From: Deltaproteobacteria bacterium
Lineage (GTDB): Bacteria > Desulfobacterota > Desulfobaccia > Desulfobaccales > Desulfobaccaceae
Reading direction: 5' to 3'
NCBI GenBank assembly: GCA_019309545.1
Contig: JAFDGA010000023.1
Location: forward strand, 1,320-65,319
Length of the DNA: 64,000 nt
Below the pieces are notes generated by a model. The model did not search any database. It was not told the origin of the DNA and saw only the letters and a list, made by a program, of their open reading frames with translations. Shown here one piece after another: positions 17,544 to 29,291 of this stretch (its first letter is position 1; the number at the start of each line of letters is the position of its first letter). The translations under genes were made by a program, and so were the position numbers.

Positions 17544-19394
17544 TCAGACCAACCGGCATACCCCCGCCCGGCATTTTTTCTCCCTGATATGCTCCTCGAA
17601 TTCCGGGCGGAAAAGTTTTAAGGCGCTCATCAAGGGGCCGGGCGCGGTCTGCCCCAGCGGGCAGAACGAAGCGTCTACCATGGTGGCCGCTAGGCGCTCT
17701 AGAAAGGCCAGATCATCTTCTTTGCCCTGGCCCTGGCAGATGCGGGTCACCGTTTCTAAAATGCGGGGCGTTCCTTCCCGGCAGGGAGTGCACTGGCCGC
17801 AGGATTCGTGAGCGAAAAATTTCGCTACCGAACGGATAAAATCTACCACACAGACACTTTCATCCATCACCAACATGGTGCCTGAACCCAGGGCGCCCCC
17901 GACTTGAGCCAGCGAGGCCAGATCCATCGGCAGGTCCAGGGCGTCGGCCGTCACCAACCCGGCGGAGGCGCCGCCGGTCTGACACATCTTGAACTTGCTG
18001 CCGTCGCGCAGGCCGCCGCCATATTTGTCGATTAATTCCCGCAAGGTAATGCCCACCGGGACTTCAACGATCTGTGGGGTCTTGACGTGGCCGATGATCT
18101 GATAAATCTTGGTGCCGGTGGTATTCTCGGTTCCCAAGGATTTATACCACTCGCCGCCCCGGTTGATGATGGCCGGAACACTGGCCAGGGTCTCGACATT
18201 GTTGACAATAGTAGGTTTATGCCACAGCCCAGCGACACCGGGGAAGGGCGGTTTAGCCCGCGGATAACCGCGATGGCCCTCAATCGATTCAATCAGCGCG
18301 GTTTCCTCCCCACAGACATAAGAGCCAAAGCCGGAGCGGACTTCGATATCAAAGGAGAAATCAGTGCCAAACAGTTTTTCTCCCAGATATCCCTTGGCCC
18401 GCGCCTGCTCAATGGCATTTTGCAGCCGGTACTTGGAGAGATAATATTCACCCCGCACATAAATGAAACCTTTACTGGCGCCGACCGCATACCCCGCGAT
18501 GGCCATGCCTTCCAGCACCTTATGGGGGTCGCCCTCCATGATGTAGCGGTCTTTGATGGTGCCGGGCTCGCCTTCATCGGCGTTGCAGATGATATATTTG
18601 GGGGTAACGGTAAGCGGCCGGGTAAAGGACCATTTCATCCCACAAGGGAAACCGGCGCCGCCCCGGCCCCGCAGCCCCGAAGCTTTGACCTCCTCGACTA
18701 CTGCCTCCGGGGTCATGGTAGTGACCGCCTTCTTTAACGCGCTATAGCCGCCTTTGGCCAGATAGTCTTCAAGGTTCATGGGATCGATAACCCCAACGTT
18801 GTTTAGCACCACCAGTTCATGCGGACTCTGTTTGTACTTGCGAAAATCATTGGTAGTATAAGGTAATTGCCTATAATCTACCACTTTGCCCCCCCGGTAA
18901 TCATTGAGCACCTGCTTAACCTTATCCCGGGTCAGGTTGCCGAACACCACTTCGTTGATCTGCATGGCCGGGGCCACCTCGCAGACTCCCAGGCAAGCCG
19001 TCAGTTCTAAAGTAAACAGGCCATCGGTGGTAGTCTCCCCGACCCCGACGCCCAACTCTTCCTTCAGCACCTGAAGGATATTTTCAAAGCCGTTGACATG
19101 GCAGGGCGGGGATTCGCACATCCGAATAATATATTTGCCTTTGGGGGTCCAGGCATACATGGAATAAAAACTCATGGTCCCAAAGACTTCACTAGCGGGA
19201 ATATTTAGACCAGCGGCGATGCGGTCCTGGACCGCCACCGGCAGGTAACCTATAAGGTTCTGGGCCTCTTGCAGGACTGGCATTAAGGCCCCGGGTTGAT
19301 CCTGATAACGGGCGATAATAGCCTCAAGCTTGTTCCATACCTCCGGGCTAATGTCGACTGCCGTTTGACTGGCACTGTGAGAATGGTGGATCAT
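17544..19394 (-). CDS. NuoE-NuoF fusion protein (NAD(P)H-binding flavo-iron-sulfur subunit of formate dehydrogenase/hydrogenase-type complexes)
   Basis: 616 aa. N-terminal thioredoxin-like 2Fe-2S module (CESPPCHVNG...CLGVCEVAP), then NuoF core with GRGGAGFP FMN/NAD motif and ESCGQCTPCREG 4Fe-4S motif. Directly downstream of fdhA. Confidence 0.85.
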   Translation of the reverse strand: MIHHSHSASQTAVDISPEVWNKLEAIIARYQDQPGALMPVLQEAQNLIGYLPVAVQDRIAAGLNIPASEVFGTMSFYSMYAWTPKGKYIIRMCESPPCHVNGFENILQVLKEELGVGVGETTTDGLFTLELTACLGVCEVAPAMQINEVVFGNLTRDKVKQVLNDYRGGKVVDYRQLPYTTNDFRKYKQSPHELVVLNNVGVIDPMNLEDYLAKGGYSALKKAVTTMTPEAVVEEVKASGLRGRGGAGFPCGMKWSFTRPLTVTPKYIICNADEGEPGTIKDRYIMEGDPHKVLEGMAIAGYAVGASKGFIYVRGEYYLSKYRLQNAIEQARAKGYLGEKLFGTDFSFDIEVRSGFGSYVCGEETALIESIEGHRGYPRAKPPFPGVAGLWHKPTIVNNVETLASVPAIINRGGEWYKSLGTENTTGTKIYQIIGHVKTPQIVEVPVGITLRELIDKYGGGLRDGSKFKMCQTGGASAGLVTADALDLPMDLASLAQVGGALGSGTMLVMDESVCVVDFIRSVAKFFAHESCGQCTPCREGTPRILETVTRICQGQGKEDDLAFLERLAATMVDASFCPLGQTAPGPLMSALKLFRPEFEEHIREKKCRAGVCRLV

Positions 19395-19462: not shown

Positions 19463-22156
19463 TTAGCCTTTTTGAATCTGCACGGCGCAGACCTTGTATT
19501 CCGGGATTTTGGCCACGGGGTCGAAGGCGGCGATGGTGAGTTTGTTGGCCGCGGCCTCGCCATAGTGGAAGGGCACGAAGATGGTGCCGGGAATGGCCTT
19601 GGCCGAGATCTGGGCTTTGGCGGTGATTTCGCCGCGGCGGGAGCGCACCTTGACTCGGTCGCCCTCGCCAATGCCATAGCGGGCGGCATCTTCCGCAGCC
19701 AGCTCCACGAAACACTCCGGGGCCTTTTCCACCAGGCCCGCGGCCCGCCGGCTCATGGTGCCGGTATGATACTGGTACAGCACCCGGCCGGTGGTCAGGG
19801 TCAAAGGATATTCCGCATCAGGCAGCTCGGCCGGTTCGCGATGCTCAATGGCAAAGAACTGGCCGAGGCCGCGGGCGAATTTATCCTTATGGAGATATTT
19901 GGTGCCGGGATGATCGGTGGTGGGGCAGGGCCATTGCAGGCCGCCCTCGGTTTCCAGGCGGGCATAGGTGATGCCGGCATAGGAGGGGGTCACCTGGCGC
20001 AGCTCGTTAAAGATGGCCTCGGCATTGGCATAGTCCATGTCATACCCCAGCCGCCGGGACAGGTCGCAGATAATCTGCCAATCCGGACGCGACTGGCCCA
20101 CCAGGGGAACCGCCCGGCGGATCAGGGCCACCCGGCGCTCGGTATTGCTAAAAGTGCCCTCTTTTTCGGCAAACGAGGCCGCCGGCAACACCACATCGGC
20201 CAACTGCGCGGTCTCGGTCAGAAAGATGTCCTGCACCACCAGAAAATCCAGTTTCTTTAAAGCCGCGACCGCATGGTCGGAGTCGGGATCGGAAATTACC
20301 GGGTTCTCCCCCATGATATACAGGGCTTTGAGCTTGCCTTCGGGTATGGCGGGCAGCATGTCGGTCATGGTCATCCCCACATAATCCGGCAGGCCGGTAA
20401 CCCCCCAAGCATCCTCCATCTTCTTCCGGTTGGCCGGGTCGGTGACCGCCTGGTAGCCGGAGAAGACATTGGGCAGGCCGCCCATGTCGCAGGCCCCCTG
20501 GACATTGTTCTGGCCCCGCAGCGGATTGACGCCGCCGCCTTCAATACCGACATTGCCGCAGAGCATGGCCAGATTGGCCAGGGATTTGACGTTGTCGGTG
20601 CCGACGGTGTGCTGGGTGATGCCCATGGTATAGACGATGGCTGCGGCCGGGGCAGTGGCATAAAGCCGCGCTACCCGGCGCAACTGGTCGGCGGGGACGC
20701 CGCTGATCTGTTCGACATATTCCGGGGTGTATTTGGCCACCGTGGCTTGCAGGGCCTCAAAGCCCTCGGTGCGGGCGGCAATGTAGTCCTTGGCGTGGAG
20801 ATTTTCTTGAATGATGATATTCATCAGGCCATTGATCACCGCGATATCGGTGCCGGGGCGGTGGCGTACCCAGATATTGGCATGCCGTACCAAGTCGATG
20901 CGCCGCGGATCAATGACGATCAAGGTTTTATGCTTCAGGCGGGCTGCCCGTTTGATGCGGGCGGCGATCACCGGATGATTCTCTGTGGTGTTGGAGCCGA
21001 TCACCAGGATACAGTCGGTGTCTTCCAGCTCAGCAATGGAGTTGGTCATGGCTCCGGAGCCAAAGGCGGCGGCCAGACCGGCCACCGTGGAGCTGTGTCA
21101 GAGACGGGCGCAGTGATCGACGTGGTTGGTGCCGATCACCGCCCGCATGAATTTCTGAAACAGGTAGTTTTCTTCGTTGGTGACCCGGGCCGAACACCAG
21201 CCGCCGATCTTGTCGGCCCCGTCTTTTTCCTTGATTTTCTTGAGGCGTTGGGCCACCCGGTCCAGGGCCTCATCCCAACTGGCCTCCCGGAAGCTACCGT
21301 TCTCTTTGATCAACGGCGTGGTGAGGCGGTCGGGATGGTGCACAAAGCCCCAGCCAAAGCGGCCTTTGACGCACAGCCGGCCCTCGTTGGGAACCTCATC
21401 AGCGCCAGTCACCTTGACTATGCGACCGTCCTTGACCTGCAGGTCGATCTGGCAGCCTACCCCGCAATAAGGGCAGGTGGACCGGACCTTAGTACGCTCC
21501 CAGGGCCGCCCCTGAAAGCGGGCCGCCTTGTCCAGCAAGGCCCCTACCGGACAGGCCTGCACGCACTCCCCGCAAAAGACGCAATCGGCGTCGATATAAG
21601 GATAATCTCCGCGGGCGACGATCTTGTTGTGCGAGCCGCGGTAGCCGATGTCGATGGCCAGATTGACCTGGCGCTCGCAACAGGCCCGCACGCAACGGCC
21701 GCACATAACGCACTTGGAAAAATCCCGCACGATCATACTATTATTGTCTTCATAATAATACGCCGTGTCGGGGGGGTTGGCAAAGCTGGGGGTCGGCACC
21801 TGGTAGCGATAGGCCAAGGCCTGCAATTCGCATTCCCCATTGGCTTCACAGATCAGGCAGTTATGATTGCCGGAGGCCAGCAGCAGTTCGATGACCATCT
21901 TGCGGGCCGCGACCACCCGTTCCGACTCGGTCTGAACCACCATGTTGGCGGCGGCCTGGGTGGAGCACGCCGGCAGCAGGGTGCGGGCCCCCTCGACTTC
22001 GACTACGCAGACCCGGCAGGAGCCGGTGGGGGTGGTGCCTTTCAGGTAACACAGGGTGGGGATGTCAATTCCCGCCCCCCGGGCCGCCTCCAGGATGGTC
22101 TGGCCCGGCGTGAATTCTACGGTTTGTCCATTTATACTTAGAGTTGAATTGGCCAT
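19463..22156 (-). CDS. fdhA: formate dehydrogenase alpha subunit, selenocysteine-containing (NuoG-like Fe-S N-terminus plus molybdopterin domain)
   Basis: ORFs 21098-22156 and 19463-21085 are in the same frame and joined by TGA at 21098-21100. The junction reads [28 protein letters not shown], the conserved Sec/Cys active-site context of FDH-H-type enzymes. N-terminus carries 2Fe-2S and 4Fe-4S motifs. Confidence 0.9.
21068..21086 (-). promoter_or_regulatory. SECIS hairpin for Sec insertion in fdhA
   Basis: On the mRNA strand, GGUGGCC-GGUCU-GGCCGCC forms a 7-bp stem with a GGUCU loop. It starts 11 nt after the UGA, which is the spacing and loop type of bacterial fdh SECIS elements. Confidence 0.6.
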
Positions 22157-23631: not shown

Positions 23632-24879
23632 TCAGAGCCGCTGGTCGCGGCTGGCGTCGTAAAATATATTGTCTGGCTCCTGCTGGCCCAGCACCCGGCG
23701 GTAGGCCTCCACCATAAAGCCGGCGATGATCTGGTTGGTCATGATTACCGCGGGATCGGGACGGTACTGGCAAGAGGCCCGGGGGTGCGAGTGGGGGGCC
23801 GTCCGGCGCTGGCGCACGATCTCCGCCAACCCCAGCAGTTCCGCCGGGGTCCGGGTATGGCGGGCCGGATCATAAACCACCACCTGACCGGCGGCGACAT
23901 CGCTGCCGCCGCTGATCAGGATTTTCTGGTGAGCTTTACATAATTCACTCAGAATGATCCTAGTCTCAAAATTATCGACCCCGTCAAAAATTATCTGGTA
24001 CGGGGAGATATCGGTTTCCTGGTCTAAGGCGACCGGGAGGAACCGGCTATTGAGGCCGAACAACCGGTTCAGGCGGGCCGACAGAGCTTGGGCCTTGTTT
24101 TTCCCCAGGCCCTGGGAGAGAAACACCTGGCGGTTTAGATTGGTCATCTCCACCACATCCGCATCCATAAAGGTGAGGTTCGTCGCGCCCAGCAAGGCCA
24201 GCCCCAAGCCGATAAAATTGCCTAAAGCCCCGGCCCCCACCACACAGAGGGGGGGATGGCAGCGCGGGAGCGGCAGTGGCGGTCGCGCATAGGCAATCAC
24301 CTCTGGCGATACCGGCTGCCCCATGAGGATATTCTTGGTCTCTTCCAAGGCCAGCCCGGCAATGATGATGTTTAGCACGTCGTCATCAAAAGGCGCGGCG
24401 GGCAGGTTGCGGGGGGACAGCAACTGCTCCAGTTCCTGCCATTCCCGCCCCTTCAGATAAGTAAAGACCTTGAAGCCTTGCTGATCAGCCTGCTGGTAAG
24501 GGAAGCCGCGGATCACCGGCCGGGGGGCGCGGCCGTCTTGAGCCAGCAATAATTTGTTGGCCAACCCGTACTGACTGAGATCCACCAGCACCTGGCAACC
24601 AGTAAATAGGTCCTCCAGCACCGGGTGGGTGAAGTATCCGGGCAGATGGACCAGGCGCAGGTCAGGATTGACTTGGCGCCCAATGTCGATCAGGTGCGGC
24701 TCCAGACGGGGGGCGATGACTACTAGTTGATTCAGCCCCAGGGCCGCGGCCGACATCACGTACAGCGAGGCCAGGCGATCATCGTCGCCGACCACGCCGA
24801 TCCGGGCCGCCGCAAGTACCGCTTGATTCCAACCCGGGATGCGCAGTTGTCGATCCAGTCTTACCGACGTCGGCCGCAT
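23632..24879 (-). CDS. E1-like (ThiF/MoeB/UBA family) adenylyltransferase with tandem degenerate + active adenylation domains
   Basis: 415 aa. Residues ~205-415 carry the intact motifs VVGAGALGNFIGLGL, TNLNRQ and DNFETR. Residues ~8-200 repeat the E1 N-terminal pattern (RQLRIPGWNQAVLAAARIGVVG), but the glycine loop is replaced by GDDDRLAS. Its ATG overlaps the JAB stop (TAATG). Confidence 0.8.
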   Translation of the reverse strand: MRPTSVRLDRQLRIPGWNQAVLAAARIGVVGDDDRLASLYVMSAAALGLNQLVVIAPRLEPHLIDIGRQVNPDLRLVHLPGYFTHPVLEDLFTGCQVLVDLSQYGLANKLLLAQDGRAPRPVIRGFPYQQADQQGFKVFTYLKGREWQELEQLLSPRNLPAAPFDDDVLNIIIAGLALEETKNILMGQPVSPEVIAYARPPLPLPRCHPPLCVVGAGALGNFIGLGLALLGATNLTFMDADVVEMTNLNRQVFLSQGLGKNKAQALSARLNRLFGLNSRFLPVALDQETDISPYQIIFDGVDNFETRIILSELCKAHQKILISGGSDVAAGQVVVYDPARHTRTPAELLGLAEIVRQRRTAPHSHPRASCQYRPDPAVIMTNQIIAGFMVEAYRRVLGQQEPDNIFYDASRDQRL

Positions 24880-25676
24880 TACAATATTTCCAGCTTTTCC
24901 AGCTTATAGGTGATGGGATTGATTTTTTCCTTGACTTCCCCGGCCAAAGCGGCCAGTTCAACCGGCGTCAGGGACTGGCCATTGTCCACCAGGACGATCT
25001 CGGCGTTTTGGTGGCTCACCGTGGTCTGGCCCGAGAGGATGGCCCGCCGCTTGTAATAGATCTGCTGCTGATGCCAGCCCTCGTCGCCGATGACGATGCC
25101 GTAACTGAACCCACCGTAAATGGTTTCCAGGATCCGGGCTTGGGCCACCGGGACATCAGTAATCAGCGAGACGCTGCCTTGGGCTAAATCGGGCTCGGCG
25201 AACCGGTCGGCCACCAACAGGGTCAAGTCCTTGATCAAAATTTCTTTCTTGGCGATGGGCTTCTTAGAGAGGGCGGTGACATAATCGAGCACAGTGAGGT
25301 GATTCTGCTCATCAATGGCGGAGAAAGCATGGAACTCGAGTTCGCCATGCGAGTGAATCCAGCCGTTGATAAAGCGGTCGGCGGCCAGGGTTTCCTGAAA
25401 AGCGGCGATTTTCTCCGGGTCGATGCTGGTGTACTCCAAGACATTCTGTTCATTTTTGGGCAAGCCGATATCGATAATGAGCTCCGGGTTATCCCGCCGG
25501 GCCAGGGTATAGCCGTACCATTCATAACTGCTGTGGTGGATGGCTCCCACCAATTCGTTGATCTTAAAGGCCTTGGAGCGGGCGTAAGAGGTCATAGGAA
25601 TTTCCTGGGGCAAGGAGTCCAGGATGATCTCTTGCGCCACTGGGCGTTGCAGTTGTGACAGGCTTTTAAATCTCAA
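24879..25676 (-). CDS. JAB/JAMM (MPN+) metallopeptidase
   Basis: 265 aa. WIHSHGELEFHAFSAID (H-x-H-x8-S-x2-D) with a Glu (SSYEWYG) about 56 residues upstream fits the JAMM zinc site. The TTG start overlaps the AAA+ stop (TTGA); an alternative ATG is at 25595. The C-terminal ~125 aa are unassigned. Confidence 0.7.
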   Translation of the reverse strand: MRFKSLSQLQRPVAQEIILDSLPQEIPMTSYARSKAFKINELVGAIHHSSYEWYGYTLARRDNPELIIDIGLPKNEQNVLEYTSIDPEKIAAFQETLAADRFINGWIHSHGELEFHAFSAIDEQNHLTVLDYVTALSKKPIAKKEILIKDLTLLVADRFAEPDLAQGSVSLITDVPVAQARILETIYGGFSYGIVIGDEGWHQQQIYYKRRAILSGQTTVSHQNAEIVLVDNGQSLTPVELAALAGEVKEKINPITYKLEKLEIL

Positions 25677-26776
25677 TTTAATTTCATCCTGACATATCGC
25701 TCATCCACTACCAGCTTGCCAGTATGGCTGCCGGGCAGCCGGAACATATCCTCAAATAACACCCGGTGGATGATACTGATCAGGCCGCGAGCCCCGGTGC
25801 GTTCTTGTTTGGCCCGCTGGGCGATCACCTTCAAGGCATCGTCGACAAAGGTCAGCTCGATGCCCCAGGCCTTGAGGTCGTTGATATAGGCGCGCAGCGG
25901 ACTGTCTTCGCTTCTAATCATGATTTCCTGGAGTTCTTGCGTGGTTAATAAGTCATAGACAATTCTCACCGGAAAGCGGCCCATGAGTTGTCGTTCCATG
26001 CCAAATACTACCAGGTCCTCGGTCAGGAGATGATCCTGCCAATTGCCGCCGAAGCCATGGCGCTCCATCCGTTTTTCGACAATGGCGTCGAGCTTCTCGT
26101 AAACCCCGCCGGCAATGAAAAGCACGTGTTTGGTGGACAGGGTGATTCTTTCCTTGCCCATCTCAATGGTATTTTCCACTCCCTCCACCAGCTTTAAGAG
26201 GCCTTTCTGAACGCCGCGGCCCGATACATCCCGGTAGGCCACGTTCTCAGTGGCGATTTTGTCAACCTCATCGAGATAGACTATGCCCATCTGGGCCAAA
26301 TGAGGGTTGCCGGCGGCGGCGACCAGTAGGTCGGCCAGGATATCGCTGGTGTTCTGTCCGACATAGCCGGTTTCACTGAATTTGGTTAAATCTTCGACCA
26401 CAAAGGGAACCCCCACCAGTCCCGAGGCGGTTTCGCAGGTGTAAGTTTTGCCGCAGCCGGTGGGCCCGATCATTAACAGGTTGGCCTTGGGAGTTCGGGT
26501 GTGGCGCAGGGCGGCGCCGATGTCACCGCCGTCTTCGGCCAACATCTCTTTGAGGGCGTTGCCTAAGCGTTTATAGTGGAAGGCAATGGCGGTGGCGATA
26601 ATCTTCTTGCCTTTTTCCTGGCCGATCACAAACCGATCTAAATGCGCCTTAAAATCAGCCGGGGTTTTATCAAATTCGACGACCTGTTGAATGGCCTCGA
26701 GAGTTTGAGCTTCTCGTTGTTGCTCAATTTTCTCTTTGATCCGCCGCCGGCTTTCCTCTGATAATCTATCAAACAT
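25673..26776 (-). CDS. ClpX-family AAA+ unfoldase paralogue lacking the N-terminal zinc-binding domain
   Basis: 367 aa, collinear with the ClpX AAA+ module. Motifs: FVIGQEKGKK, Walker A GPTGCGKT, pore-1 loop TGYVGQN, Walker B IVYLDEVDK, DVSGRGVQKGLLKLVEG, sensor region TGARGL. There is no C4 zinc finger and no RKH loop. The IGF-loop position is shortened to RHGFGGN. Confidence 0.85.
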   Translation of the reverse strand: MFDRLSEESRRRIKEKIEQQREAQTLEAIQQVVEFDKTPADFKAHLDRFVIGQEKGKKIIATAIAFHYKRLGNALKEMLAEDGGDIGAALRHTRTPKANLLMIGPTGCGKTYTCETASGLVGVPFVVEDLTKFSETGYVGQNTSDILADLLVAAAGNPHLAQMGIVYLDEVDKIATENVAYRDVSGRGVQKGLLKLVEGVENTIEMGKERITLSTKHVLFIAGGVYEKLDAIVEKRMERHGFGGNWQDHLLTEDLVVFGMERQLMGRFPVRIVYDLLTTQELQEIMIRSEDSPLRAYINDLKAWGIELTFVDDALKVIAQRAKQERTGARGLISIIHRVLFEDMFRLPGSHTGKLVVDERYVRMKLN

Positions 26777-26846: not shown

Positions 26847-27278
26847 TTAGGCTCGGCCTGGTCCCCGGAGTCGCTTCCGCTGCCACAGGGTGAGAAAATG
26901 GAAGCGGCCCAGTAGTTCCGGGTTAAGAGCCGGATTTAATTTAAACAGCGGTCCACACAGCAGAATCTCGGCTGGGGAGTGCACGAACTGCAGGTAAGGA
27001 TTGTTGACTGCCGCGATAATTGCCATGGTCACTTGATATTCCGGGGCAGTACCCAGAGCAAACAGCGGAGGTTGGAAAAAAGCTTTGTTTGGCACCGGCT
27101 CGTGTGCAAAGATTTCCACCGGCCACTGCTCTAAGGGCTGATCGAGGAGGGCGACAAAGCTGTTCCCCAAGCCATAGGCCTTTACTAAAGTGCATATTCT
27201 GGTAAAAAGGCTGCATTGAAAAGGCGGTTTGTTTTTTCTCTGCGCCCTTTCCCCTCTTATTTGCTGCAATAGGGCCAT
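26847..27278 (-). CDS. hypothetical protein (operon-embedded, 143 aa)
   Basis: Its ATG lies 1 nt after the stop of the upstream 384-aa ORF (TGAtATG). I recognise no motif. Coding is inferred from the tight coupling within the cassette. Confidence 0.5.
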   Translation of the reverse strand: MALLQQIRGERAQRKNKPPFQCSLFTRICTLVKAYGLGNSFVALLDQPLEQWPVEIFAHEPVPNKAFFQPPLFALGTAPEYQVTMAIIAAVNNPYLQFVHSPAEILLCGPLFKLNPALNPELLGRFHFLTLWQRKRLRGPGRA

Positions 27279-27279
27279 A

Positions 27280-28434
27280 TCAGGTGTATCTGTTTTTTAC
27301 CTCGACCTGCCCGGAGACAATTTTGGGATGATCGGCGGAAATCCGGTAATCATCGAAATCGACGGTCCGAACATGCTGAGTTATGCGATCCAGACTGTGA
27401 TAACCGTTGCGGCGGCGACTGTTGTAACCATAATACAGGGCGTTAATGCCTTCCTCCAGGGCCTGGATGACATTTTCGGCAGTAAAGTTTTTGGTTGTCT
27501 CGTAATCGCCGGTGCAGATTTTCTGCCAGGAAGCGTAGCCGAACAGGAAGGGGTGTTTATATCTTTCCAGCACCAGGGGCTGTAGACCGGCCAGAGTGGA
27601 AACCGCCACCCGACAGTCGGGGAATAGATAAAAGCGACCATAGTAATCTTTGAGGACATATTCGCCGATGTGTTTATAGATGATGTATTCGTTGCTGAAG
27701 CCGGTTTTAAAAAACCCGAAGCCATCCACCTCTAATGAACCTTGCCGGGCTAGGGCGAGGAGAATTGGGAGATAAGTACTTTGGGTCCGGACCAGCTGTT
27801 GTCGTTCCGCCAGCGCCTGTCGGAGACGATCTCTTTCCTGATCAATTATATATTTTTCCAAAGCCAGGCGAAACCACTCGTACAACTGTGGGGCCAACAT
27901 CAAACCTTCTAAAGGTTCGGGTCTGGTTGCCGCAGTGGCTTCAAGCCTTGTCACTAAATTTTGCAGTAATTCTAAATCCAGCAGCTTATCTACCTTTTGG
28001 TCATCGATTTTGGAGATTTCCAGCTTCTCCCGCAGCAAATCCATTATTTCTGTTTCGGTAAGTGGTATTCTCTTTAAACCGGCTTTTCTTCTCAAAAAGT
28101 GGGGCATTACCTCGAAAATTATGGTTCTGACCTGACTATCGATAGGTAGATCATTGATCTCCGGATCATGGCCAAATTTCTGTAAACCGGCCCGCCGCAG
28201 TTGCTGATAGGAGGTGGGGTGGATTTTTTCGTAGTTTTCCACCAGGGAGGCCAAACTCAAGGTTTTGACAAACAGCTTTCCCGCCCTGGCAATTAGGGGG
28301 CTACCAGGGGGTGGCGTGAACTGACCATCCGAGTTCTGAACTTCGCAAGCTATTTCCGGATCAAACAGTAGTGGTAGATAGATAAAGCCGCCTTCTATGA
28401 CAATCTCAAGATTTGATTCCAGCAACTGTTGCAT
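27280..28434 (-). CDS. hypothetical protein with candidate E2-like (UBC-fold-like) C-terminal region
   Basis: 384 aa. Residues ~235-345 read as strand-rich segments (FYLFPDCRVAVS, PLVLERY), then HPF (294-296), then Cys307 (QKICTG; codon 27514-27516) 10 residues later, then a helix (TAENVIQALEEGINALYYG). This is the order seen in E2 catalytic cores. It is pattern-level evidence only. Confidence 0.45.
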   Translation of the reverse strand: MQQLLESNLEIVIEGGFIYLPLLFDPEIACEVQNSDGQFTPPPGSPLIARAGKLFVKTLSLASLVENYEKIHPTSYQQLRRAGLQKFGHDPEINDLPIDSQVRTIIFEVMPHFLRRKAGLKRIPLTETEIMDLLREKLEISKIDDQKVDKLLDLELLQNLVTRLEATAATRPEPLEGLMLAPQLYEWFRLALEKYIIDQERDRLRQALAERQQLVRTQSTYLPILLALARQGSLEVDGFGFFKTGFSNEYIIYKHIGEYVLKDYYGRFYLFPDCRVAVSTLAGLQPLVLERYKHPFLFGYASWQKICTGDYETTKNFTAENVIQALEEGINALYYGYNSRRRNGYHSLDRITQHVRTVDFDDYRISADHPKIVSGQVEVKNRYT

Positions 28435-28478: not shown

Positions 28479-29291
28479 CTAGTTTAAAGTTAACCTCATC
28501 ATATAGAAACTATCATTATTTTCATGATCGAGGGAAAGCACCTTCATAATTTGAAAGCCCAGGCGCTCATAGAGTTTTACTGCGCCGATCTTAACCAGCT
28601 CAACGTCTAATTCTACATATTTAACCTTTTTTTGCTTGAAGTTAGCGATACAGTTTTCAATTAACGCCGTCGCGATGCCCTTCCCTCGATGCTCGGGATG
28701 CACTGCGATCCTCAAGATCACCGCTCGGTGGCCTAGTTCACAGATACAGCCGATCAGGTAGCCTAAAATTTCTGTTGTTTCAAATATATAAAATAAGTGG
28801 TTCAGGGCCTGGCGAAAATTATGGTATTCCCAGAAGTCCAGGAAGGATAGCCGATCGATTTCCAGGACTTTATCCAGATCGCTCTCCGTAGCCATGCGGA
28901 TGTAATTACTGTAATTGCGATAAGGTCTACCTCCTTCTTGAGGTTTGATGGCCCGCACCGGCACGTAGAGATATTGTTCTCCGACTTCAGTTTCCTGCAC
29001 TTCGGCATAATCTCTAGCCTTGCCGTCAACCTCTCGACCTCTGCAGAGCAACTTGCCACCGGCCAACTGTCTTTTAATGTCTTCAAGGACTTGTTGTTCT
29101 TCGATGCTCCAATTGGTTTTACTTAAGGTTTCTTCACACAGCTTCCGGAGCGGTTTACCCTCGTAACTGCCGGGCTCGAAAATCTCGATTAACCCTTCTC
29201 CGGCCTGTCCCGGCATGATTTCGATCACCAATGATTGCGGCTGTGCCCGTTCAGCCGGTTGCTCAGCTTTCTTTGATTCTATTTCGGTCAT
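28479..29291 (-). CDS. fusion protein: N-terminal ubiquitin-like (beta-grasp-like) module ending in Gly-Gly + C-terminal RimI-like GNAT acetyltransferase
   Basis: 270 aa. Residues ~135-270 are a clear GNAT (ILRIAVHPEHRGKGIATALIE, VELDVELVKIGAVKLYERLGF). Residues ~20-121 show a Ub-like pattern (LVIEIMPG..GLIEIFEPG, long helix, KLLCRGREVDGKARDYAEVQ, YLYVPVRAIKPQEGG) with GG at residues 120-121 (28929-28934). AAGAGG RBS. Confidence 0.6.
   Translation of the reverse strand: MTEIESKKAEQPAERAQPQSLVIEIMPGQAGEGLIEIFEPGSYEGKPLRKLCEETLSKTNWSIEEQQVLEDIKRQLAGGKLLCRGREVDGKARDYAEVQETEVGEQYLYVPVRAIKPQEGGRPYRNYSNYIRMATESDLDKVLEIDRLSFLDFWEYHNFRQALNHLFYIFETTEILGYLIGCICELGHRAVILRIAVHPEHRGKGIATALIENCIANFKQKKVKYVELDVELVKIGAVKLYERLGFQIMKVLSLDHENNDSFYMMRLTLN

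Follow-up and report, generated by a model that had tools for sequence, protein, structure and literature searches.

A 64,000-nucleotide stretch of a Deltaproteobacteria genome (assembly GCA_019309545.1, contig JAFDGA010000023.1, positions 1,320 to 65,319; hereafter the window, meaning this whole stretch) contains an open reading frame (ORF) that probably encodes the precursor of a ubiquitin-like modifier (Ubl), in which an entire GNAT acetyltransferase forms a C-terminal propeptide to be released by the JAMM peptidase of the same operon. Residues 1-121 of the encoded protein would constitute a Gly-Gly-terminated modifier, probably of the beta-grasp fold, belonging to an apparently undescribed Ubl operon. 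In most species this modifier would be made with a short and arbitrary C-terminal propeptide, whereas in the clade represented here the propeptide would be the complete GNAT enzyme. An earlier note on this DNA, written from the letters and their translations, had read the ORF as a Ubl-GNAT precursor cleaved after an internal Gly-Gly, and our analysis supports that precursor reading; the cleavage itself we infer.

The ORF is intact on the minus strand (28479..29291), has an ATG start with a ribosome-binding site (AAGAGG) 8 nt upstream, and encodes 270 amino acids (aa) that run from an N-terminal domain without annotation, through Gly120-Gly121 and a linker of 9 residues, to a complete GNAT domain:

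28929..29291, minus strand: Ubl-like modifier domain, residues 1-121 (residues 1-19 disordered, folded core 20-116, C-terminal motif K-P-Q-E-G-G)
28929..28934, minus strand: codons of Gly120-Gly121, the predicted mature C-terminus and predicted JAMM cleavage site, where conservation stops
28902..28928, minus strand: linker RPYRNYSNY, residues 122-130, disordered in the AlphaFold2 model (predicted local distance difference test, pLDDT, below 50 at residues 121-127)
28479..28901, minus strand: GNAT acetyltransferase domain, residues 131-270, and stop codon (Pfam PF00583 and PF13527)

The Gly-Gly codons lie at 28929-28934 as the earlier note had placed them, and the complete GNAT domain that it saw behind them is recognized by two Pfam models: PF00583 at residues 153-246 (E 7e-18, 65.5 bits against a cut-off of 20.7) and PF13527 at residues 131-248. 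An assembly or annotation artefact can be ruled out, because the identical protein is deposited in GenBank (MBW2135216.1, 'GNAT family N-acetyltransferase', from a Deltaproteobacteria metagenome-assembled genome (MAG), with 2 further members in its cluster) and because in-frame 272-aa Ubl-GNAT orthologues occur in three other MAG species (loci L005-L007). The GNAT portions of these orthologues are 80-87% identical to that of the window protein. PQEGG is invariant in the fusions and the junction GG|RP is conserved in all four, while 'RP' is the only part of the linker to be retained (the other three read RPYRHPSSH, RPVPNAGGH and RPVPNASGH). The codons for Glu119-Gly-Gly (28929-28937, minus strand) read GAAGGAGGT, close to a perfect Shine-Dalgarno site; the idea that the GNAT is translated separately, from a start codon inside the ORF, was nevertheless rejected, as the only in-frame candidate, Met133, is 33 nt off and is not conserved in L005-L007. 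In stand-alone Ubl genes a GAAGGAGGT-type motif sits just before the next gene, whose translation it could aid.

The relatives of the N-terminal domain are mostly free-standing. With residues 1-130 as the query we recovered 612 homologous proteins, nearly all of them stand-alone and 121-195 aa long, commonly about 120-140 aa; the top 120 are 61-76% identical to the query, and nearly all of these lack any Pfam domain. Residues 1-130 match nothing in Pfam, and the Ubl protein has no match in NCBIfam. An exhaustive hidden Markov model search of 1.84 billion representatives produced only 67 clusters (at 50% identity), the GNAT fusion being a single one of these (P0241, 270 aa). The fused form is thus an uncommon exception, confined to one clade, in a family of mainly stand-alone proteins. 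Apart from it, this search gave a single further 'fusion', P0280 (326 aa), which joins Ubl residues 1-53 straight to a homologue of p384, a neighbouring operon protein, and probably results from a deletion or from chimeric assembly.

Conservation of the Gly-Gly exceeds chance by a wide margin. P-Q-E-G-G is invariant, and is the final conserved element, in two alignments of the Ubl family (A1 and A2, with 19 and 39 members, respectively). Scanning a single genome for each GTDB species yielded 117 matching stretches, from which 80 loci on 79 contigs were kept; together with four loci fetched earlier (L001-L004) these make up 84 loci, and the QEGG motif is present in every one (as AQEGG in L058, and after frameshift correction in L031). 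Even among the 22 most divergent full-length members, a list that also contained the fusion representative P0241 and two atypical proteins, 21 carry [PSA][QE][EQP]GG near the C-terminus, the exception being P0289 (...AVQPGNLY). What follows the Gly-Gly is by contrast unconserved: across the 84 loci there are 0-48 such residues, except in L005-L007, each of which has an in-frame 151-residue GNAT. The Gly-Gly forms the exact C-terminus in 4 of the 84 loci (L018, L049, L065 and L073) and in the proteins P0010, P0048 and P0290. Because the tails are unconserved and some proteins end precisely at the Gly-Gly, removal of the residues behind it appears to be a general requirement of the family. The earlier note had proposed to check whether the Gly-Gly and its boundary position are conserved, and whether stand-alone versions ending in it exist. 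Both checks strongly favour its reading: the alignments, the loci and the divergent members show the conservation, and such versions do exist, stand-alone proteins being the rule.

The Ubl gene is part of a conserved, co-directional cluster, delineated by tblastn of the window's neighbouring genes onto all loci, that comprises Ubl, p384, p143, a ClpX-like AAA+ protein, a JAMM (JAB) peptidase and an E1. In the window the five partners of the fusion gene, which stands at the head of the operon, are:

27280..28434, minus strand: p384, a conserved unknown protein (invariant C274, H294-P295, C307, H346)
26847..27278, minus strand: p143, a small conserved unknown protein (invariant S101-P102-x-E104 and H127-F128 in alignment A5)
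25673..26776, minus strand: ClpX-like AAA+ unfoldase (NCBIfam ClpX, E 8e-80)
24879..25676, minus strand: JAMM/MPN+ metallopeptidase, a candidate for pro-Ubl processing and for deconjugation (E52, H108-x-H110, S119-x-x-D122)
23632..24879, minus strand: E1-like adenylating enzyme (ThiF domain at residues 212-402, Pfam E 1e-27, preceded by a 200-aa N-terminal domain)

Here the stop and start codons overlap at the last two junctions (ClpX-like/JAMM, by 4 nt, and JAMM/E1); in other operons the E1 gene is found either first or last. Among 49 well-flanked loci, p384 is present in 47, the ClpX-like gene in 45, JAB in 45, E1 in 44 and p143 in 44, and all five partners occur together in 40. The operon is found mainly in Desulfobacterota, with a few examples from other phyla, and its range takes in Methylomirabilota, Binatia and Acidobacteriota; it is located among housekeeping genes rather than in a defence-island context. 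A known defence system was ruled out, since no PADLOC model matches Ubl, p384, p143 or JAB; for Ubl, p384 and p143, Pfam and NCBIfam likewise hold no model.

The co-encoded JAB peptidase of the earlier note is indeed there, as a JAMM gene with an intact E...HxH...SxxD motif; the gene is present in 45 of the 49 operons. Its motif residues E52, H108, H110, S119 and D122 are each kept in at least 98% of 55 orthologues and are invariant in alignment A4. The Pfam Prok-JAB match of the protein is weak and sub-threshold (E 0.004, 17.3 bits against a cut-off of 25), and it has no NCBIfam or PADLOC match. Processing of the modifier by this peptidase is suggested, in the first place, by the tails that most family members carry, which would block adenylation. 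It is also suggested by the fusion genomes, in which tblastn mapping finds no second Ubl gene within the operon while E1 and JAMM are retained, so that an uncleaved fusion would leave a conserved E1 and JAMM without a substrate. The same observations bear on the alternative, already raised in the earlier note, that the Ubl-like domain is a permanent part of the GNAT and docks it to the E1, ClpX-like or p384 machinery. Integral UBL domains are common in eukaryotes (Rad23, parkin), and the linker is short, at 9 residues; both would suit such an arrangement. We nevertheless regard it as quite improbable, given that PQEGG is still invariant in the fusions, that E1 and JAMM persist there in operons devoid of a further Ubl gene, and that in all other family members the domain stands alone with its Gly-Gly at or near the C-terminus. 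A precedent for the cleaved precursor exists in type I Bub (6E.1), where experiments show that BubCD, encoded in the same operon, uses its JAB domain to cut the BubAB Ubl-E2 pre-protein directly behind a conserved Gly (PMC11601596); by analogy, cleavage of the fusion described here would be JAMM-dependent.

Of the other partners, the E1 retains the motifs GxGxxG, NLNRQ and DxxDN, and Cys370 in the crossover region is conserved at 98%. Its best PDB relatives are Uba1, Uba4, Cap2 and MoeB, its best NCBIfam scores come from ThiF/MoeB models, and in PADLOC it reaches BilD with an E-value of only 0.0016 and the E1-E2/Cap2 models only over the adenylation core. We could not show that the N-terminal half is an adenylation domain that has lost its activity: the two halves gave no significant BLASTP match to each other, and Pfam sees a single ThiF domain. 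Residue 300 of the window E1 is Gly (FDGVDNFE) at a position where 91% of orthologues have Cys (D-C-x-D-N), while the candidate catalytic Cys370 is kept. The ClpX-like ATPase scores 268.6 bits against NCBIfam ClpX (equivalog cut-off 359), with a match that begins at profile position 37, and preserves the core motifs Walker A (GPTGCGKT), pore loop (GYVG) and Walker B (DE). Its N-terminus is a charged 35-residue stretch without Cys and therefore without zinc-finger ligands, the Zn-finger N-domain being absent. Its IGF region is short and variable (H/Q-G-L/F-x-G-N/D-W), and docking to ClpP is therefore doubtful, as judged from the sequence. Finally, p143 (143 aa, no family match) would be a dubious ORF if taken alone, yet it occupies the same operon position in 44 of the 49 loci.

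Taken together with the cleavage, these proteins suggest the following scheme. The JAMM peptidase would cut after Gly121; the Gly-Gly carboxylate of the freed Ubl would be adenylated by the ThiF-type E1, and the Ubl, possibly thioesterified on Cys370 of the E1, would then be transferred to targets. Both p384 and p143 may participate in this transfer, and the ClpX-like ATPase may handle the tagged proteins. The free GNAT, produced 1:1 with the Ubl, would be an optional accessory of the system. The data show directly the domain architecture, the invariant Gly-Gly at the domain end, the variable tails, the conserved operon, the intact catalytic motifs and the recurrent linkage of GNAT and operon; fold class, adenylation, conjugation and any action of the ClpX-like ATPase on tagged proteins we infer. 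A much broader proposal is that the six-gene operon represents a new, vertically widespread bacterial Ubl tagging system, in which the GNAT is made 1:1 with the tag in a Desulfobacca-related clade. Such a system would combine a JAMM-matured modifier, a two-domain E1, non-UBC transfer by p384 (with its invariant Cys and His residues) and p143, and a dedicated ClpX-like unfoldase, and might be a functional analogue, in Desulfobacterota and Methylomirabilota, of ubiquitin-Cdc48/proteasome or Pup-Mpa. Cleavage would in addition expose an N-terminal Arg on the GNAT, a potential bacterial N-degron that could make the enzyme short-lived. As a joint claim we put this forward tentatively, and consider it rather doubtful in its entirety.

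Several results weigh against these interpretations, the first of which concern the fold. An AlphaFold2 model of the N-terminal domain, built from 39 sequences, is confident (mean pLDDT 82, core above 90) and contains strands 21-27 and 34-38, helices 48-57 and 63-76, strand 80-83, helix 92-95, and strands 97-100 and 106-115, with residues 1-15 and 121-127 disordered. This order agrees with the ubiquitin-like succession of secondary structure described in the earlier note, except that its 'long helix' is split in two. A Foldseek search of PDB and BFVD gave no match at E<=1e-3, however, the best being 0.05, and hhalign against ubiquitin found no sequence relationship (probability 0.3%). A PDB profile search with the Ubl family likewise found no Ubl, and the motif-by-motif likeness to ubiquitin that the earlier note had pointed out therefore lacks statistical support. 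The compact Foldseek matches (Atg8/LGG-2, the EccD Ubl, Atg12, TBCB-Ubl, UBX, PB1 and a giant-virus ubiquitin) are all beta-grasp proteins, though none is significant (TM-score 0.36-0.46). Thus the outcome for the fold anticipated by the earlier note is weakly positive: the model is confident and the compact matches belong to the expected class, with none of them significant, which leaves a beta-grasp fold probable but unproven. The functional reading does not depend on it, since E1/JAB systems can also act on C-termini that are not Ubls, such as those of CD-NTases in CBASS (PMC11601603).

A second point is that no operon protein has a Pfam or PADLOC match to a UBC-type E2. Such an E2 was suggested by p384, which has 693 homologues (every one of them annotated as 'hypothetical'), no Pfam domain and the invariant pattern 'FP...P.V...YKHPF...IC', in which 'YKHPF...C307' resembles HPN...C, by eye only. 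As a UBC-like E2, however, p384 had to be set aside: its AlphaFold2 model (pLDDT 81) has no Foldseek match and its profile no PDB match, and such an identity is still speculation. We regard p384 as a candidate conjugating or ligase component.

A third set of results concerns the GNAT domain and its link to the Ubl. The domain carries the acetyl-CoA loop R-G-K-G-I-A, and its nearest relatives are 97 stand-alone proteins that are 45-53% identical to it. Members of the same clade (48-52% identical) have a gene of their own, placed between those for JAB and E1, in L028 and L056, both from Methylomirabilota, and in L089, where the GNAT gene overlaps the start of the E1 gene; in L085 a same-clade GNAT lies 3 kb upstream of the operon. 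Since both a fused form and a separate JAB-GNAT-E1 form exist, this GNAT clade was recruited to the operon at least twice, in differing arrangements, and the GNAT is an optional accessory of the operon. On the other hand, 6 of 9 sampled nearest stand-alone homologues are not operon-linked, which rules out the clade as an exclusive operon component, and a GNAT is missing from about 90% of the operons, so that GNAT and Ubl may be only weakly coupled in function. The rarity and clade-specificity of the fusion, the separate operon-borne GNAT genes, and the ClpX-like ATPase and two unknown proteins of the operon all go beyond what the earlier note contained.

These numbers are best weighed together with the possibility of neutral capture, in which the fusion is cleaved and the GNAT is functionally unconnected with the Ubl system, a neighbouring housekeeping gene for a RimI-like or protein acetyltransferase having been fused through loss of a stop codon. 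Because JAMM would strip any sequence behind the Gly-Gly, such an event would be costless. This possibility gains from the arbitrary length and sequence of the post-GG tails, from the lack of a GNAT in most operons, and from the location elsewhere of 6 of the 9 sampled closest stand-alone GNATs, often beside universal-stress-protein (Usp) and histone-deacetylase-family genes. We still judge it unlikely, because members of the clade have joined the operon on at least two occasions, with arrangement and phylum differing (fused, and as JAB-GNAT-E1 in L089), and one stands next to it in L085, and because the fusion has stayed in frame across four species with 80-87% identity.

The GNAT was called 'RimI-type' in the earlier note, which is a loose term. 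Its membership in the GNAT superfamily holds and RimI is the best-scoring named family, while the scores stay below the family cut-offs (TIGR01575, 61 bits against 86.4; PRK09491, 42.7 against 173). The core is 33% identical to E. coli RimI over 57 aa, with the Tyr of KLYERLGF conserved, in a comparison that used a manually entered RimI sequence. The domain is therefore like RimI in its acetyl-CoA loop and catalytic Tyr position, and unlike it in that stand-alone orthologues are found beside Usp and deacetylase genes and not beside tsaB/tsaD. Same-clade stand-alone GNATs recur in this Usp and histone-deacetylase-family neighbourhood (L085:6860-11479, L092:2530-4911 and L091:1793-3639), which hints at a native role of the clade in the reversible acetylation of proteins, and not in that of the S18 N-terminus.

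The last point against tagging concerns sulfur carriers. A Gly-Gly with a tail, a JAMM peptidase and a ThiF-type E1 are also the signature of sulfur-carrier pathways such as CysO/Mec+ and QbsE/QbsD, with which the layout of our locus is also compatible. In this alternative the protein would be a ThiS/MoaD/CysO-like carrier, thiocarboxylated by the E1 after JAMM trimming and not conjugated to proteins, and the top NCBIfam scores of the E1, which are those of ThiF/MoeB models, fit it too. We consider it very improbable. No rhodanese, cysteine desulfurase or biosynthetic enzyme is found by Pfam or NCBIfam among the six operon proteins, and there are no sulfurtransferase or biosynthetic genes among the conserved neighbours; the operon contains instead a ClpX-like unfoldase and two conserved unknown proteins. 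Furthermore, the E1 carries an additional N-terminal domain of 200 aa and finds its best PDB sequence matches in Uba1 and Uba4, and the modifier, with about 100 folded residues and two helices, is larger than ThiS or MoaD. The resemblance to CysO/Mec+/MoeZ and QbsE/QbsD therefore lies in the clustering of a small Gly-Gly protein with a C-terminal extension, a JAMM and a ThiF-type adenylase; the differences lie in the larger carrier and in the unfoldase that takes the place of sulfurtransferase or biosynthetic genes. JAMM/ThiF sulfur-incorporation clusters are the subject of, for example, PMC5925218.

Comparison with other known systems places the operon near, and outside, the bacterial Ubl families. 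As in type I Bub, a Ubl lies N-terminal to an enzyme of the same operon and a co-encoded JAB/JAMM exposes the Ubl C-terminus for the E1, a step that is predicted in the present case. In contrast to type I Bub, the partner is a GNAT instead of an E2, the fusion is clade-specific where that of Bub is universal, JAB and E1 are separate, DUF6527/BubE is lacking, and a ClpX-like ATPase, p384 and p143 are added; PADLOC and Pfam detect no sequence similarity to Bub proteins. Bil (BilABCD) and type II CBASS Cap2/Cap3 share with our operon the separate genes for the Ubl (or a Ubl-like C-terminus), JAB and E1, and the E1 may in both cases bear a non-catalytic N-terminal domain before the active adenylation domain. 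They differ from it in that it has no UBC-type E2, lies in no defence island and is widespread within Desulfobacterota lineages. In the way it is predicted to work, the operon resembles Bub, Bil and CBASS maturation, yet it is outside those families: it has no UBC-type E2, no match to a family-specific model, and different accessories.

Eukaryotic precursors (Ub-L40/UBA52, Ub-S27a/RPS27A and polyubiquitin bearing an extra C-terminal residue) provide a further parallel, with a GG-ending Ubl placed before a protein or tail, stoichiometric co-production and release by a deubiquitinase; the present case is bacterial, its partner is an enzyme and not a ribosomal protein, and the processing enzyme is presumably a dedicated operon JAMM. 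By functional analogy only, the operon is also comparable to Pup-Mpa-proteasome and ubiquitin-proteasome/Cdc48, in which a small tag goes with a ring AAA+ unfoldase as the two do here by co-encoding. The N-terminal ~20 residues of the Ubl, disordered in the model, could be an engagement site, and tag recognition by the ClpX-like ATPase would follow from this analogy purely as conjecture. Unlike those systems, the operon encodes neither a protease nor ClpP, and the IGF loop by which ClpX docks to ClpP lacks conservation.

The operon family is apparently undescribed so far. Full-text literature searches, which did not cover Burroughs et al. 2011 (Mol Biosyst), returned no ClpX + ThiF + JAMM Ubl operon and no Ubl-GNAT precursor, in keeping with the earlier note, which knew of no such precursor either. 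Term look-ups in Iyer 2006, Chambers 2023 and a preprint from 2024 on the structural diversity of bacterial Ubls likewise turned up neither the same operon nor the precursor.

Some loci depart from the common operon. In L003/L024 (CAVOPT010000016.1; L003:6686-13211) an E1-Ubl-p384-JAB variant lacks p143 and the ClpX-like gene, and is directly followed by an Amidoligase_2 gene, with two GATase_4 genes in addition, a gene set that other work has predicted to synthesize or attach peptide tags. A reduced variant in L001/L017 (CP070692.1; L001:7299-10359) has Ubl, ClpX-like and JAB, without p384 and p143 and with a short E1-like remnant (residues 340-410) upstream of the Ubl gene, and is possibly a decaying copy of the operon. 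CP070843.1 carries two Ubl genes (L076 and L082), of which one lies in a complete operon and the other stands isolated, with a p384 fragment only behind it; a distant ClpX-like gene (34% identical) lies 4 kb upstream on the opposite strand. Elsewhere in the window, two adjacent minus-strand ORFs at 19463-22156 make up one formate-dehydrogenase alpha subunit, the in-frame TGA at 21098-21100 (HCARL-U-HSSTVAGL) being likely, from its sequence context, to be a selenocysteine codon; a NuoF-like subunit follows at 17544-19394.

To our knowledge, the cases of bacterial Ubl conjugation described so far come from a handful of defence operons of sporadic occurrence (CBASS type II, Bil and Bub). The locus described here belongs to a different operon family, in which the trio of Ubl, E1 and JAMM is joined by an AAA+ unfoldase and two proteins without detectable relatives, and its Ubl-GNAT fusion provides a genetic link between acetylation and Ubl tagging. 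If conjugation holds true, the operon would become a candidate bacterial ubiquitin-like pathway outside defence, possibly one of proteostasis, with a new, non-UBC solution for the transfer step. The fusion would then be a natural 'ubiquitin-fusion' precursor whose enzyme is freed by a deubiquitinase-like cut, and would test how general the processing of Ubl precursors is in prokaryotes.

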